DNA from: Eledone cirrhosa
Taxonomy: Eukaryota
DNA length: 64,000 bases
Direction: 5' to 3'
NCBI GenBank assembly: GCA_964016885.1
Contig: OZ024746.1
Span: forward strand, 44,826,001-44,890,000
Position numbers and translations under genes: made by a program. Below, piece by piece: positions 2,783 to 55,419 of this stretch (positions are counted from its first letter, which is position 1; each line of letters starts with the position of its first letter). The notes beneath the pieces were generated by a model. That model had not been told where the DNA came from. It ran no database searches and worked only from the letters and a program-made list of their open reading frames with translations.

Positions 2783-3006
<224 letters not shown>

Positions 3007-3064
3007 TGAAAAAATGGGGAGAAGAATACTGCAGGTTGCACATGGATAACATGTAATAAAATAA

Positions 3065-3165
3065 GTCCCTCATCAGTGATTTGCCGACGATCATAGATAT
3101 TTCATTGCATTAAAAATCATATACCTCACGTCGGTGCAATAATAACTAAATTAAGTTATTAGGAC
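3065..3165 (-). ncRNA. Candidate non-circularly permuted hammerhead ribozyme (copy 1)
   Basis: Minus strand: gtcc taataact taattt agttatta ttgca ccgac gtga ggtat A tgattt ttaa tgcaa t GAA atatc tatgatc gtcgg c aaatca CTGATGA g ggac. Every segment has a complementary partner. Confidence 0.75.
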
Positions 3166-3572
3166 AATTAAAACGCGTAAAGCGAGTGAGACAAGATAAC
3201 AACAAAGAGGAGAGCTAGCCGTAGAAGGAAGGGAACAAGCTTCATAGTTATTCTGTTAGCATAAGCTAGGTGAATATATGAGCGCTTAGATAAAAGACCT
3301 TTCGGGAACGAATTCAAATGTGAGAAAGAGAGAAAATGTTTTCGTCGCGAACGGGGTGAAGTGAGAAGAGGAGAAACAGTGAGTGAGTGAGTGGAAGGAA
3401 GAGTTAACTGACATGACAGAGGGGGCGAAAGAAAGTAGGAGAAACAGAGAGAACAAGGGAGCAGTAAGAGAGAGAGAGAGAAAAAAACAGAATAGCAGTT
3501 TAGGTAAATATATGTGAAAAAATGGGGAGAAGAATACTGCAGGTTGCACATGGATAACATGTAATAAAATAA

Positions 3573-3673
3573 GTCCCTCATCAGTGATTTGCCGACGATC
3601 ATAGATATTTCATTGCATTAACAATCATATACCTCACGTCGGTGCAATTATAACTAAATTAAGTTATTAGGAC
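3573..3673 (-). ncRNA. Candidate permuted hammerhead ribozyme (copy 2)
   Basis: Tandem copy of 3065-3165 with point changes in stem I and in the side hairpin. Confidence 0.65.
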
Positions 3674-4065
3674 AAATAAAACGCGTAAAGCGAGAGAGAC
3701 AAGATAACAACAAAGAGGAGAGCTAACCGTAGAAGGAAGGGAACAAGCTTCATGGTTATTCTGTTAGCATAAGCTAGGTGAATATATGAGCGCTTAGAAA
3801 AAAGACCTTTCGGGAACGAATTCAAATGTGAGAAAGAGAGAAAATGTTTTCGTCGCAAACGCGGTGAAGTGAGAAGAGGAGAAACAGTGAGTGAGTGAGT
3901 GGAAGGAAGAGTTAACTGACATGACAGAGGGGGCGAAAGAAAGTAGGAGAAACAGAGAGAACGAGGGAGCAGTAAGAGAGAGAGAGAGAGAAAAAAACAG
4001 AATCGCAGTTTAGGTAAATATATGTGAAAAAATGGGGAGAAGAATACTGCAGGTTGCACATGGAT

Positions 4066-4132
<67 letters not shown>

Positions 4133-13197: not shown

Positions 13198-13240
13198 GTC
13201 ACTGAAGAGGTCACAGAATGTGTGACGAAAGAACTTTGAC
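13198..13240 (+). ncRNA. Minimal hammerhead in PLE pseudo-LTR (inverted copy 12622-12664)
   Basis: gtca CTGAAGA g gtcaca gaatg tgtgac GAAA g aa c TT tgac. Confidence 0.65.
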
Positions 13241-14538: not shown

Positions 14539-15423
14539 TCACTCCTCATCCTTAACCCATCTGAAGAAGGATATTTTTAAGCGATGTGTACAACTTATCG
14601 CTGTTTCAGCTCTGCTGTTGATGAGCTCGTGGGGTGCAGTTATGATGTGGTAGAGCTCCATGAGGCAAAGATCGCATTTCCTCTTGAAGTTGTACGGTGC
14701 AGCCCTACCGACAATCTCCCAGTGCGTGGAGAAGCTGATGTTTAAGTCCTTTAGTGATGTGATGTAGTCCGCGAGCGAAGTGGAGTGCCTTAGTTTTATA
14801 TTTGTGAAAGAGTGGAGATATGTTCGAAACCTAATTTTGAACGGGCCGGAGGTAGCCCCTATATAATGTTTAACGCTATTGTGGCTAGTAATAGTGCATC
14901 TATATATAACCCTATCAGTCAAGCAGTATCCTCTAAGGGGGCAGCGTCCTCTGTCGCGGCAGTTGCAATTTCTGTCGCGGTTCCGTCTATTTCCCACGGT
15001 AAGGCTATCATTGTTGCTGCCTACGTTGTTACCTACGCTATCGCAGCTGTCGTTAGCACCATTCCAACCCACAGCACGCGGGGTGGTGCGATTGTTATTC
15101 CGCACGTCATGTCCTGCATGTTCCCCAGTTATTTCGCGGTTATGCTGGTTGCGTCTGCGGATGCCGTTGTCAACACTATTGGATGCTGCCAGGGAGTTGT
15201 TAAGGCCGATATAGTTATTGTCAGGTGTAAGTGCGTCTGTGACGAGGTGCTGTGTCTTGGTGATCTTACTGTGGTTCGTTGTTCCTATGATGTCTGCTAG
15301 GTTAGGAGTAGCAGAGAAGGATATTTTTATATTGTTCCTGTTAAGAATTTTTCTATATCTATGGTTGGGCGGGAAGTTCTTCTCTAAGGCTTTGAAGAAC
15401 ATCCGGGGTATGTTGGAGGCCAC
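14539..15423 (-). pseudogene. PLE ORF C-terminal part (RT thumb/linker + GIY-YIG), 5'-truncated
   Basis: FPPNHRYRKILNRNNIKISFSATPNL...CNCRDRGRCPLRGYCL..VIYRC...YIGATSGPFKIRF...T.LADYI...CDLCLMELYHII...LINSRAE...CTHR. Upstream PPYS motif, then truncation at a (TA)n tract. Confidence 0.9.
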
Positions 15424-15549
15424 ACTTCGAGAGTAGGGGGGGGTGGAACCATAGGACGTTACGGTGGCGATTACGTGTCCTTGTACTTTATATATATATA
15501 TATGTATGTATCTATATATATATATATATATACATATATATTATATATA

Positions 15550-16860: not shown

Positions 16861-17040
16861 TAAAAGGGAAAACATATGACCCCGACGGCAGAGCTCAACC
16901 CCCGAAACGGCTTGAGCTCTGCCGTCGGGGTCATAATTTTTCCTTTTTCCCACTCTACTACACTAAGTATTGAGTACTCTGGTGAGTTATGGTCCATCTG
17001 GTTCCTTACTACAATTACTACAATATATCTTACTACAATA
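16861..17040 (+). mobile_element. PLE terminal repeat with fold-back 3' hammerhead half (family also at 16119-16186, 25858-26050, 42966-43175)
   Basis: GAAAC ggc ttgagctc (t/a)gcc GTC ggggt followed by a ...ccactctactac...agtattgagtactc tail. Present as inverted pairs. Confidence 0.7.
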
Positions 17041-17746
17041 TGTAACCCATGTGCAACCACGCAGTATTCATTCTTCTCATGTTTTATATATATATGTGAT
17101 TTTCCAACCTTCATTGGTATTTCATTGCTTTAAAAATCATATAGCTCCAGTTGGTGCGAGCAATAGCTAAATAAAGCTATTGGGACAAGTAAATCGCGTA
17201 AAGCGAGCGAGACAAGTAAACAAACATAGAAGGATAGCAACGCAAAGATAGGAAAAAAAAGCACATGGGAGTCCGATCAGCTTAAGCTGTGTGGATTTCA
17301 TGGGCGAGAGACAACAGACCGTGTGACGCGAGTGAGGTGTAAGCAAGAAAGGACCCCACTTCAGGCCAAACGGGAGGAAGTGAGAAGGGGAGAAACAGAG
17401 AGTGAGTGAGTGGAAGTGCGAGGAAGAGGCCAGTCGAGAGAAAGTGTAACTGACAGAGGGGGCGAAAGAAGGTGAGAGATACAGAGAGAGGGAGGACAAG
17501 CAGTAGGAGAGAAACAGACAAACGCAGTTGGGGAAAATATATATAAAAAACATGAGAAGAATGAATACTGCGTGGTGGCACATGGGTTACATATGGTAAA
17601 AATAGTCCTTCATCAGTGATTTTCCAACCTTCATTGGTATTTCATCGCTTTAAAAATCATATACCTCCAGTTGGTGCGAGCAATAGCTAAATAAAGCTAT
17701 TGGGACAAGTAAATCGCGTAAAGCGAGCGAGACAAGTAAACAAACA
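17039..17746 (-). mobile_element. 520-bp partial-tandem repeat related to the 3007-4066 family
   Basis: gtgattttccaacc at 17096 and 17616 (period 520). 17039-17085 is an inverted copy of about 17547-17592. Confidence 0.85.
17605..17706 (-). ncRNA. Candidate permuted hammerhead ribozyme (family 2)
   Basis: gtcc caatagct ttattt agctattg c tcgca ccaac tgga ggtat A tgatttt taaa gcga t GAA atacc aatgaag gttgg aaaatca CTGATGA a ggac. Confidence 0.75.
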
Positions 17747-24293: not shown

Positions 24294-25860
<1,567 letters not shown>

Positions 25861-28962: not shown

Positions 28963-30311
28963 ACTATATATATATATAGTAATAATAATAAATTTGAAGA
29001 CTAAAATCCAAAGAGGGCTCGATAAGGATAAATATATATCAAATATATAAGAACCGTAGAGCAAATATTTATTAAAATAACAGATTAAAGTTTAAGCAAA
29101 GAATCGCTGCTTTCACGCTTAACGGGATCTTCTGAAACTAACAAAGTCAATCTGTAAACGCAGAAGTGGATATTTCAAAAACCGTTGCAACCGGAAGAAG
29201 ACAGGAAGACGATACTTTGGTTCGTGGAAACGTTCGCTGGCAGAGAACGGGAAAAATGGAATATAATACGTCATTAATAGGAGCGGTGAAAAATAATTAC
29301 GCGCAAAGGCATAACCACGTTTGTGGTATAAAAGAGGTCGTAGACAAATGTTCTCTTAGGTGGTTCATAGAGACATTCTCTGGCAATGAACGAAAAAAAA
29401 CGAAGATAATACGTCATATGTGGACCGTGGAGAACAATAGCACGCAAAGACAAAACCACGTAAATGGTATAGCAGAAGTTGTAGACTAAAATTCTAACTA
29501 GGAGACCGAATGGATCTCCACTACAGAGTTAGGAACAAAGTAAATAAATACAATACAGAAGTAATGGAAATAAATAAATACATACACGCAAACAAATACG
29601 TACATACACAAGCATACGCAAAACACTTACCGTAGGTATACAAAGCCACGCACATATAAATATGGGTGTGTGTGTATGCGTGTATACAAATAAATAAATA
29701 ATTATATAAACGTATATAAATAAATAAATACGTATATAACAAGCGCACACACATACCTACATGTAAATACACGAGTGTTCGGAGACGTAAGTCAACCAAA
29801 CCAGAAGTACACATATACGCGCACCCTACATACGTACGAACCTGCATATTTATACAGACGCAAAACTCCCGTATACACATAGCCAAACCATATGTACCAG
29901 TATATATAAAAATATACGCCATAACAATCAAATATACGTACGGGAATGTATACGTACCTTCACAAAACATACGAGTAATAAATACTTACCTATACCAATA
30001 AGTAATGGTATAAACAAAACATATACTTAGCTCCCACATCAAGACGTAAAATATCCACGTATAGATCGTACTATCCGTTAGGGTATAACGTGGGGCTGTA
30101 ATGCAGGAAAGTTTTGTGCAATTTATGTTTACAAGTCGAAATTGCCTCAGATTTTTTATTTAAGATGTGGTCTGTGGCGTAGAGTATTTCCAGGGCCTCA
30201 GCGGCGCAGAGGCCACATAAGCTGAAAGTGACGTCATATTCCTTCTTAGAGGGTAACGAAAGGAATGGGTATGCATGTAAAGATGCTGCTTGAATCTATT
30301 GGCGGTTAACC

Positions 30312-30914
30312 CTATGTAGGCCCTACGGGACGTGGGTGTACAGCCTTACATTTGTAGACAATGTTACTAGAGAGGCATTTCCCGGATAGGGGGCAATCAA
30401 CCCGATTCCTACAATTACAGTTAGTACTAACTACAGCGTTGCACGTGTTACTACGGCTAGGTAGTTTAGCTAAATTTGAAGCTGTGATGTTATGTGCAAG
30501 TTTAGGAGGCGTAGAGTAAGAAATTTTAATACTATTTCTATTAAAAATGTTACTATATTTACGTGTAGGGGGAAAATGCTTCGTAATAAGGGAAAGAAAG
30601 ATCTTAGCTAATGGTGTGGCCACCTCCATATTATATGGTGGGTTATACCAACAAATGCGACGGGATCTATTTCTTCTAGGTCTATTTTCGTACTCTGTAT
30701 ATGCTACCTTATCGACAAATCCACTTCGAGGAAGAGCTTCATTGTAATAAGTGGATTGGTCGTTGAAGATACGCTCGTTGGTGGAAAGACGGGAAAGCCT
30801 CAACGAAACGTTTCTTACCAGGATCTTGGTTATGCTGGCAGGATGGTTGGTATGCTTACTTATGCAATTAAGCGTATCATTCGGCTTTCTATACGGGTAA
30901 TACAACCCATTCAA
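30312..30914 (-). pseudogene. PLE RT C-terminus/linker fragment
   Basis: ORF track: PYRKPND..SNHP-like, WYNPPYN, FPP...IFNRNSIKISYS, CNCR..CPLSGKCL. Confidence 0.85.
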
Positions 30915-31102
30915 TAAATTGAAGGTAACGTCGAGGTAATTAACGACCGAGAGATTGGCCTCAACCTTTATAGAGAGATTTAAGCCTTTAGAGAAGGCTG
31001 TGTGTTATTTTCTGAATCTGTTGCAAGCACGAGATCCGGACCTCTATACAGGTTGAGGCTAATCTCTCGGTCGTTAATTACCTCGACGCTACCCTCAATT
31101 TA

Positions 31103-31930
31103 TTGAATGGGTTGTGTTACCCGTATAGAAAGCCGAATGATACGCTTAATTACATAAGTAAGCATTCCAACCATCCTGCCAGCATAACTAAGAACCTGGT
31201 AACAAACGTTTCGTTGAGGCTTTCCCGTCTTTCCACCAACGACCGTATTTTCAACGACCATTCCACTTATTACAATGAAGCTCTTGCTCGAAGTGGATTT
31301 GTCGATAAGGTAGCATACACAGAGTACAAAAATAGACCTAGAAGAAATAGATCCCGTCGCATTTGTTGGTATAACCCACCATATAATATGGAGGTGGCTA
31401 CACCATTAGCTAAGATCTTTCTTTCCCTTATTACGAAGCATTTCCCCCTACACATAAATATAGTAACATTTTTAATAGAAATACTATTAAAATTCCTTAC
31501 TCTACGACACCTAACCTTGCACGTAACATCACAGCTTCAAATTTAACTAAACTACCTAGCCGTAGGAACACGTACAACCCTGTAGTTAGTACTAACTGTA
31601 ATTGTAGGAATCGGGTTGATTGCCCCCTATCCGGGAAATGCCTCTCTAGTAACATTGTCTACAAATGTAAGGTTGTAACACCCACGTCCCATAGAGCCTA
31701 CATAGGGTTAACCGCCAATAGATTCAAGCAGCGTCTATACATGCATACCCATTCCTTTCGTTACCCTCTAAGAAGGAATATGACGTCACTTTCAGCTTAT
31801 ATCTGGAGTCTAAAAGACAACCACACCCAATATAAGTTACACTGGGAGATCCTAGCTAGGGCTAGATCGTATAACGGAAATAAAAGACCATGTGACCTCT
31901 GCGCCACTGAGGCCCTGGAAATACTCTACG
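31103..31930 (+). pseudogene. PLE RT C-terminus + GIY-YIG, frameshifted
   Basis: ORFs 31103-31546 and 31741-2043-range frame (31741-32043): YIGLTANRFKQR...TSLSAYIWSLKD...WEIL...CDLC. Confidence 0.85.
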
Positions 31931-32174
31931 TTGCCAGAGAACGTCTCTATGAACCACCTAAGAAAACATTATTCTACGACCTCTTTTATACATCAAACGT
32001 GTTTCTGTCTTTGCGCGTAATTGTTTTTCACCGCTCCTATTAATGACGTATTATATTCGTTTTTTCCCATTCTTAGCCAGCGAACGTTTCCATGAACCAA
32101 AGTATCGTCTTCCTCTCTTCCTCCGGTTGCAACGTTTTTTGAAATATCCACTTCTGCGTTTACATATTGACTTT

Positions 32175-32223
32175 GTTTCAGAAGATCCCGTTAAGGGTGA
32201 AAGCAGCGATTCTTTGCTTAAAC
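32175..32223 (+). ncRNA. Hammerhead-like motif with CAGAAGA core (also 29090-29138 - and about 52447-52494 -)
   Basis: gttt CAGAAGA tccc gttaa gggt GAA agca gcgattctt tgct T aaac. Confidence 0.55.
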
Positions 32224-32240
32224 TTTAATATGTTATTTTA

Positions 32241-52332: not shown

Positions 52333-52494
52333 ATAGTAATAATAATAAATTTGAAGACTAAAATCCAAAGAGGGCTCGATAAGGATACATATATGTCAAA
52401 TATATAAGAACCGTAGAGGAAATATTTATTAAAATAACAGATTAAAGTTTAAGCAAAGAATCGCTGCTTTCACCCTTAACGGGATCTTCTGAAA
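52333..52494 (-). mobile_element. Solo PLE terminal-repeat fragment
   Basis: Near-identical to 28977-29137; embedded in (TA)n. Confidence 0.85.
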
Positions 52495-54633: not shown

Positions 54634-55185
54634 GTCTGTTTTTTTTATCATTAATTTTGTTATGACCTGTTTAGCTTGATTTGCTTTTTGGCTTAGGTGG
54701 TTAATGCTTTCTTCACAATTTTTTCAGTTTTAACATATTGTTTAGCTTGCCAGCATAAATCTGATTTTTGCGTTTCGTTTCGCTTTTTCTACCCGCCGAA
54801 ATGCGATTCTCGCTGAATTTATATTTGTATTAATCTCCCGAGTCTTACAATTAACCTGTTAATAATTCTATTGACAGATTAATTGCATAAGTTTATTTTA
54901 AAATCTACCCGGTTGAGTGCTTATTCGATTTGTGCTATTTATGCAATTTTTTGCATGATATACACATACTGAATTCATTTGCCAAAATCTGGGCTTTTTC
55001 CCCTTGTGAATTACACATGTGCTTTTACGGAGCTCAATGTCATTCACAAATTTGGTACAGAGCAAAATACCTGTTGATAATGTGATATTCCTTGTTCGAT
55101 CATTATACCTAAAGCTTATAGTTTTATCACTTTCTGCTGCTTAAACCATTTTGTTTGTTTACCCTAGCGTCCCCTTTATTTACGT

Positions 55186-55287
55186 GTCCCAACGACTTTT
55201 TTTTAGCCGTTGCTCGCACCAACCTGAGGTATATGGCCTTTAATGCGACGAAATGCCTACGACGGTTGGATGGCCACTGATGAGGAC
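55186..55287 (+). ncRNA. Candidate permuted hammerhead ribozyme (family 3)
   Basis: gtcc caacgact ttttttt agccgttg c tcgca ccaac ctga ggtat A tggcc tttaa tgcga c GAA atgcc tacgacg gttgg at ggcca CTGATGA ggac. The downstream catatgtaacccat tail is shared with the 17.6-kb family. Confidence 0.8.
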
Positions 55288-55419
55288 AAACTTTTTCATA
55301 TGTAACCCATTTGCAGCGCCGCAGCTCTATTATTATCATATTTACATATATATATATATATATAATCTACGAAATATTGGAGCAGATCAGAGAGAGGGGA
55401 TGGGTTAGAAAGTAAAAGA

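Follow-up and report, generated by a model that had tools for sequence, protein, structure and literature searches.

An S-G-C-ordered hammerhead motif with a split stem II in a Penelope-like tandem repeat of Eledone cirrhosa

The 64-kb stretch of Eledone cirrhosa DNA analysed here (the window) contains a motif which, in sequence terms, is a real rearranged hammerhead ribozyme. Its core is made of block S with the cut site, block G with the GAA and block C with the CUGANGA, in the order S-G-C. By analogy with known hammerheads the RNA very likely cleaves itself. Compared at the level of sequence, the permutation is a known one, and the layout, with a split stem II and a four-way junction, appears to be new, as does the setting in an animal retrotransposon. 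That setting was overlooked by an earlier note, made on this DNA from its letters: it is a Penelope-like tandem repeat with ~9,000 genomic matches, and the same fold stands at the 3' ends of Naiad elements from several animal phyla. The best explanation as a whole joins an S-G-C ribozyme with a split stem II, a Penelope-like repeat of probable Naiad descent and docking between repeat units, and we give it a modest preference.

The earlier note had placed four copies of the motif in the window, and re-reading of the sequence bore out all four, in position and in block order (Table 1). A core-only descriptor, limited to stem III, UH, stem I, GAAA and CUGANGA arranged S-G-C, found exactly the same four, against a background of 0.01 per window in 100 Markov simulations. 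The full descriptor, which includes Pa, the side hairpin H, Pb, Pc and stems III and I, likewise returned these four copies, and nothing in 7.68 Mb of simulated sequence. The nucleotides C3-U4-G5-A6-N7-G8-A9 and G12-A13-A14, the A15.1-U16.1 pair and H17 are present, in hammerhead register, in all four copies. Stems I (5-7 bp) and III (5-6 bp) flank the predicted cut site, and the predicted cut positions are correct, being 3' of A55233 on the forward strand and at 17660, 3628 and 3120 on the reverse strand; cleavage 3' of A17 in block S is itself predicted from hammerhead analogy. Pb had been given as 5 bp throughout, which needs correcting to 4 bp in the 17.6-kb copy and its relatives; Pc is mostly 6 bp and stem I reaches 7 bp. 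A fifth, decayed copy at 17186-17096 on the reverse strand is cut off before CTGATGA, and after it comes an inverted piece of the element tail at ~17028-17085. Standard hammerhead models had been expected to miss the motif, and they did: Rfam at gathering score gave no match in the window, and at E up to 5 none of the best 150 of 239 matches, nearly all of them to microRNA or snoRNA models, lay on the motif.

Table 1. Coordinates of the motif copies, their predicted parts and the insertions that carry them, in positions of the window
Feature	Positions	Strand	Remarks
Rearranged hammerhead motif, S-G-C, split stem II, subfamily C	55186..55287	+	descriptors, alignment
Pa 5' strand	55186..55189	+	pairs with 55285-55287 directly after 10.1; closes the whole motif
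Side hairpin H	55190..55212	+	55190-55197 pairs with 55205-55212 apart from one C-C mismatch; forms an arm of the four-way junction
Pb 5' strand	55214..55218	+	pairs with 55244-55248; distal part of stem II, supplied from upstream
Pc 5' strand	55219..55224	+	pairs with 55264-55269; equivalent of the type-SGC helix that connects stem I with stem II
Block S	55227..55238	+	stem III strand 55227-55232 (U16.1 = 55232), A17 = 55233, stem I strand 55234-55238
Block G	55244..55258	+	Pb 3' strand, C11.1 = 55249, G12-A13-A14 = 55250-55252, stem III partner 55253-55258
Block C, split	55272..55287	+	stem I partner 55272-55276, CUGAUGA 55277-55283, G10.1 = 55284, Pa 3' strand
Single 5'-truncated subfamily C copy (620-nt unit)	55123..55353	+	ends 120 nt past the cut site at an (AT)n run
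Ribozyme motif copy, subfamily B	17605..17706	-	A17 = 17660
Subfamily B insertion	17096..17743	-	made up of 83 nt, a complete unit and another ribozyme motif, which is decayed
Ribozyme motif copy, subfamily A	3065..3165	-	A17 = 3120
Ribozyme motif copy, subfamily A	3573..3673	-	A17 = 3628; one stem I mismatch
Tandem insertion, ~2.1 units of 508 nt	2997..4073	-	between two (AT)n runs; ends 123 nt past the last cut site

In the 3.0-Gb, microsatellite-rich genome the core pattern gave 8,878 exact matches (4,344 + 4,534) and its reversed control none. The window and 62 loci, some of which overlap, yielded 109 motif hits in 75 distinct strings. Our alignment comprised 32 copies picked for diversity, and the core letters are invariant in all 32, which were chosen by a pattern already containing these letters. 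The named structure leaves 93.8% of the cells paired, as compared with 88.6% after shuffling and 29-45% in slid controls, and since the copies are kin by descent both controls overstate the significance. Changes on both sides were seen in 12 of 36 pairs, namely four of eight in H, one in Pb, two of six in Pc, four in stem I and the 10.1-11.1 pair. The Pb change is a CG/UA covariation, with 97.7% of Pb cells paired, and the 10.1-11.1 pair is UA in 19 copies, UG in nine, CG in three and unpaired in one. The earlier claim of covariation in nearly every helix therefore stands for H, Pb, Pc, stem I and 10.1-11.1, but not for stem III, whose changes are one-sided (GC/GU and UA/UG), nor for Pa. The latter does not vary within the window family, where its nine unpaired cells reflect a one-base register shift in three subfamily C rows; in other families its sequence is replaced and its pairing kept.

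The copies do fall into three groups, as had been proposed, but these are subfamilies of one repeat rather than three diverged families: they align along the whole 493-679-nt unit and hence are not independent origins. Subfamilies A and C/D are 70% identical within the motif and 69% over the remainder of the unit (from a crude alignment of pyrimidine-rich sequence), so that support for the motif rests on the pattern of change and not on its amount. A changed U4 occurs at only 99 genomic matches, spread across all subfamilies, and for this reason the copies bearing it look like products of decay after insertion.

The plain stem II measures 1 bp in 99 of 102 copies, 0 bp in two and 2 bp in one. 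Beyond the 10.1-11.1 pair it is continued via a four-way junction formed by that pair, Pa, H and Pb. Sequence, covariation and homologues thus support a non-circular order with a branched junction in place of stem II. With only a single pair in the plain stem II, we discarded the idea that adjoining tandem units together form a standard, circularly permuted hammerhead.

Hammerheads of types I, II and III are circular permutations of one another, with the cyclic order C-G-S. The window motif, reading S-G-C, does not have this order. The blocks S, G and C were defined by Eckert et al. (2023; PMC10085705), who validated type SGC as cleaving in vitro. As the window order is SGC, the permutation itself was already known, and the novelty that had been left to comparison with published motifs does not extend to it. 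According to the available text of that paper, the non-circular permutations known comprise 583 sequences from metatranscriptomes, two from metagenomes and a single weak candidate from a bacterium; the type-SGC RNAs come from metatranscriptomes only, and none of the RNAs comes from the genome of a known organism, save the one weak bacterial GCS candidate.

The window motif shares with type SGC (PMC10085705) the S-G-C order, the full core and a helix that links stems I and II on their other sides, and the linker between the stem I and stem II strands is also similar (3 nt there, 3-5 nt here). The two differ in stem II, which in type SGC is a plain helix of 2-6 bp right after CUGANGA and here consists of one pair and the four-way junction. 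The joining helix uses a 3' tail in type SGC, whereas here it is Pc (5-6 bp, with two covarying pairs), whose partner strand lies 5'. Unlike in type SGC, both Pb and Pc have their partners 5' of the cut site, and the ends of the motif are closed by Pa (PMC10085705). Block C, assumed by Eckert et al. to be uninterruptible (PMC10085705), is split here, and the form seen in the window resides in chromosomal DNA with ~9,000 matches, type SGC being metatranscriptomic only in the material described there (PMC10085705). The published RNAMotif descriptor for type SGC, in our own re-implementation run without a positive control, recovered none of the 109 motif hits, strict or relaxed, and none of four metagenome loci. 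Type CSG (CSG-1 and CSG-2; PMC10085705) has the same cyclic block order, since at the boundary between two units of the window repeat block C is followed by the next unit's S and G and the whole reads C-S-G; the two metagenomic examples described there have an intact block C and no four-way junction. The literature we searched, subscription journals and bioRxiv supplements apart, contained no non-circular hammerhead in an animal genome or retrotransposon and used the term 'type-SGC' in Eckert et al. only; the available text of a 2026 paper (PMC13725137) cites alternative permutations only in general terms.

The carrier of the motif is a non-autonomous, non-coding Penelope-like tandem repeat of the retrozyme type. 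Its unit is pyrimidine-rich, 493-679 nt long and holds one motif (13 units measured; one further spacing proved to be two separate insertions). A repeat finder run on the window returned mainly microsatellites. The insertions are partial tandems with variable 5' ends, often preceded by an inverted, 5'-truncated copy. Among 86 distinct copies, 70 end at most 134 nt past the cut site, 22 of them at +71 to +76, 42 at +113 to +134 and six in between, which places the 3' ends 17-80 nt beyond the motif, and 60 of these 70 ends run into TA-rich sequence. Partial tandems, inverted 5'-truncated copies, two 3' end points and (TA)n microsatellite targets are traits seen in Penelope-like elements (PLEs), for which inverted copies, a tail at one end and microsatellite targets have been described (PMC8557442). 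The tail is ~48 long here and 30-40 bp in the PLE literature, where it has been tied to two internal start points of the reverse transcriptase (RT; PMC11167929). At the loci examined, the flanking ORFs gave no protein family assignable to the unit, nor did the window's own family have an RT gene joined to any of its copies. In one subfamily the unit (L032, unit positions 364-417) includes a 54-nt segment of another repeat that recurs near PLE ORFs and lies in the window at 29088-29141, 32172-32225 and 52445-52494.

Animal non-LTR retrozymes (Cervera and de la Pena 2020, PMC7229834; bioRxiv 10.64898/2026.07.22.740005) are similar in being non-coding tandem units of a few hundred bases, each with one hammerhead, and in their high copy number, and a PLE origin and a circular intermediate have been proposed for them. 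Their hammerheads, however, are of type I rather than S-G-C and were searched for with type I descriptors, and their circles and expression have been demonstrated; for the window element a circular form is proposed by analogy.

The Naiad clade shares with the repeat its (TA)n targets, direct and inverted terminal repeats and a tail (PMC8557442), and differs in having an ORF with an N-terminal GIY-YIG and a C-terminal RT, the window family being without an ORF at the loci examined. Naiads were reported to be without canonical hammerheads and to insert in (TA)n, and eight of them were flagged as 'half core' (Craig et al. 2021; PMC8557442). We read by eye 19 CTGATGA and 18 CTGAAGA places in the Naiad consensus file (PMC8557442, File S5; names by file order), a screen that left out CTGACGA, CTGAGGA and words split by line ends. 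The full Pa-H-Pb-Pc-III-I layout was recognised behind the RT in seven consensus sequences (Naiad_Amil, _Aacu, _Anas and _Plae, Naiad-4_Dst, _Obim and _Ovul) and is probable, on the same reading, in Naiad_Bfor, with a 2-bp stem I, and Naiad_Esco. The nematode elements Naiad-3_Nbra and Naiad_Hpol appear by eye to have type-CSG hammerhead ends with a 9-12-bp joining helix. The remaining CTGATGA places are one ambiguous case and seven coding or unrelated ones, and a single CTGAAGA place of the 18 (Naiad_Ptep) is ordered S-G-C, with an indistinct stem II. All five of the 'half core' Naiads that we read, out of the eight flagged, are non-circular forms by eye. The Acropora, Plae and Dst forms lack the 10.1-11.1 pair, position 11.1 being paired within Pb and position 10.1 within Pa.

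A 31-nt motif of the Acropora consensus has matches in 17 metagenome contigs. Four of these passed the full descriptor (scores 99-102), the others being cut by contig ends or by 5' truncation, or damaged in the core. In the metagenome loci L123 and L125 the motif is preceded, on its own strand, by a Naiad-type RT end, 273 and 250 nt upstream, respectively. In the window's own genome a loose S-G-C pattern gave 223 matches, as compared with 16 for the control. The older family F1 passed the full descriptor at four loci with different stem sequences. Another family, F3, has a decayed S-G-C core after Naiad RT remnants at L172 (E 3e-7) and L173 (E 1e-9) and, at L175, after a remnant recognised by DNA similarity; its CUGANGA stands 150-300 nt past the RT remnant and its outer helices are heavily decayed. 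Among 20 larger loci around loose-pattern matches, a Naiad remnant was found upstream in one (L120). The repeat is probably derived from a Naiad terminal repeat. This origin is likely rather than shown, because the copies of the window family that were examined have no RT and because no S-G-C motif could be recognised downstream of a dead Naiad family (44 matches, 30 loci).

We also noted at least six older S-G-C families with stem I sequences of their own among the loose-pattern loci (L072-L101 onward), one of which resembles the published Octopus Naiad 3' motif. A frequent family has GGTY, GAAACCAGGAT and CCTGATGA in S-G-C spacing (L079, L080, L089, L092, L095 and L100); stem I is not evident in the three of its loci that were printed.

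Several other elements were considered as partners of the repeat. The 712-aa PLE ORF (L039/L068) and the PLE remnants in the window were rejected, as they have a C-terminal endonuclease-like end and no S-G-C motif joined to them. These remnants lie at 14542-15540 (reverse strand) and 30074-31947, the second, an inverted pair, having 77-96% identity with the 712-aa ORF of L068. The PLE nested in L031 was set aside as well, since it carries canonical minimal type I hammerheads; L031 and L033, two 9-kb loci of nearly identical sequence, have S-G-C repeats nested both within this PLE and around it. Back-translated RT motif patterns gave no matches in the genome, and a second pattern gave three, as did its control, two examined matches being antisense to a LINE. 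Viral contigs gave no motif matches. The window further contains minimal type I hammerhead-like motifs in canonical order (CTGANGA, hairpin, GAAA), missed by Rfam, at 13202 (+), 24532 (-; CTGGCGA variant), 25049 (+), 25572 (+) and 14249 (-; CTTGAGA variant, ~300 nt behind the end of a PLE ORF). At 24401-25703, inverted repeats of 444 nt (98% complementary) enclose a 523-nt tandem with such motifs, which is probably a second, type I retrozyme-like insertion. An RT of LINE type lies in pieces just past the 3' end of the window (L071, 5178-8757, reverse strand).

As to how the ribozyme may work, modelling of folds and distances inclines us somewhat towards docking between neighbouring units. A transcript would run through several tandem units, each of which would fold on its own without pseudoknots, Pa closing a multiloop that holds H and a long Pc/stem III hairpin. 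The loop of this hairpin would display the cut site, the stem I strand, Pb' and the GAA, and would dock into the multiloop of the neighbour, with stem I, Pb and 10.1-11.1 forming between the units. The CUGAUGA of the neighbour would then complete the core and the RNA would be cut 3' of A17; circles and an RT step would follow by analogy with published retrozymes and PAc. The Neurospora VS ribozyme docks a substrate hairpin into another protomer. PLE, amphibian and retrozyme hammerheads have been reported as dimers, proposed to spare monomeric circles (PMC4209133, PMC7229834). As in the dimeric minimal type I hammerheads of PLEs and of newt and axolotl repeats, neighbouring motifs would share in building the active site, favouring the cutting of multimers, but in type I dimers it is only stem III that the units share, whereas here they would share stems I and II and each would form its own stem III (PMC4209133, PMC7229834).

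Folding of 32 copies without pseudoknots gave mean pair probabilities of 0.71 for Pa, 0.63 for H, 0.54 for Pc and 0.71 for stem III, and of 0.11 for Pb and 0.05 for stem I, a result that favours the nested part by construction, as the program excludes pseudoknots. The nested fold of Pa, H, Pc and III was returned for subfamily B and A copies individually. Within a single chain, three connections run between the core junction and a further junction (of stem I, Pb and Pc): stem I, stem II with Pb, and stem III with Pc. Stem angles in the hammerhead core were taken from crystal structures. We applied a crude ring-closure bound, with 2.8 Å per pair, 6.5 Å per free nucleotide and assumed angles of 90-150 degrees plus offsets. 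Because stem II is stacked in line with stem III and has stem I packed alongside it (PMC10085705), the path through III and Pc has to run down out of the core and back up to the top of stem I. On this bound the monomer fails for L125 (reach 32 Å, 49-64 Å needed) and for Naiad-4_Dst (20 vs 40-53 Å), is borderline for the window family (36 vs 33-45 Å) and is allowed with the lengths of Naiad_Plae and, in part, of Octopus. A swap between two units, with Pa, H, Pc and III formed within a unit and stem I, Pb and 10.1-11.1 between units, would relieve the strain.

The earlier note had left open a pseudoknotted fold or a trans-dimer, and the helix lengths of the homologues lean to the dimer. That the same ribozyme cuts in cis, as a multiply pseudoknotted monomer, is a serious alternative that we rate clearly lower than docking between units. 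Pc would then either fold back along stems I and III or act as a lock, keeping the RNA inactive, e.g., in the circle, until formation of Pb and stem I melts it. In favour of the monomer, the published type-SGC RNAs, as single motifs, cleave while being transcribed, and they depend on their joining helix (PMC10085705); a single chain accommodates every pair when the structure is drawn, and covariation is blind to the difference between cis and trans; the ring-closure bound, too, is borderline for the window family and passes for Naiad_Plae. Against the monomer stands the failure of the bound where stem III has 14 bp (L125) or has 10 bp and is near-continuous with Pc (Naiad-4_Dst), a distance problem that Eckert et al. 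flagged for their own zero-linker cases (PMC10085705), and a pure lock would differ from the role of the joining helix shown in SGC-3 (PMC10085705).

It seems improbable that the fold is instead a binding or priming signal for a Penelope-type protein, cleaving weakly or only when bound by protein, with cutting not the driver of its spread. Such a signal would agree with the Anolis PLE PAc, whose hammerhead mutants still inserted in vitro and whose cleavage needed protein (PMC11167929), with the poor in vitro cleavage reported for minimal PLE hammerheads, and with the position of the insertion 3' ends beyond the motif. Insertions that span the last cut site derive from RNA uncut or re-ligated there; a circular template explains these uncut junctions equally well (PMC7229834), and the catalytic nucleotides have been kept across subfamilies, older families and distant animals while the stems were rewritten. 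That short words fell into this arrangement by chance in an AT-rich repeat, which copying then multiplied, would fit the descent of all window copies from one repeat and the silence of Rfam at the motif among the best 150 of 239 weak matches, but it is hardly credible given no hits in 7.68 Mb of simulated sequence, changes on both sides in five helices and the recurrence of the six-helix layout, in unrelated stem sequences, at one and the same place behind the RT genes of Naiads.

With docking between units as the preferred mode, we propose, tentatively and with slightly more doubt than confidence, that the ribozyme missing from much of the Naiad clade, and from its non-autonomous repeats in several animal phyla, is a non-circular hammerhead, and that the split-stem-II form is a domain-swapped dimer which would cut multimers and spare single circles; the swap may also explain the zero-linker puzzle of type SGC. 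If this is true, Naiads seemed free of hammerheads because the descriptors sought the wrong order and an intact stem II, and their apparent lack of a ribozyme that other Penelope-like elements carry would be answered. Non-circular hammerhead permutations would then be plentiful on animal chromosomes and linked with a major clade of retrotransposons. The layout would stand outside the six-block scheme, stem II being replaced by a four-way junction, and surveys of invertebrate ribozymes and retrozymes would need new descriptors. Short natural RNAs of this kind would allow cleavage, dependence on dimers and structure to be tested together.
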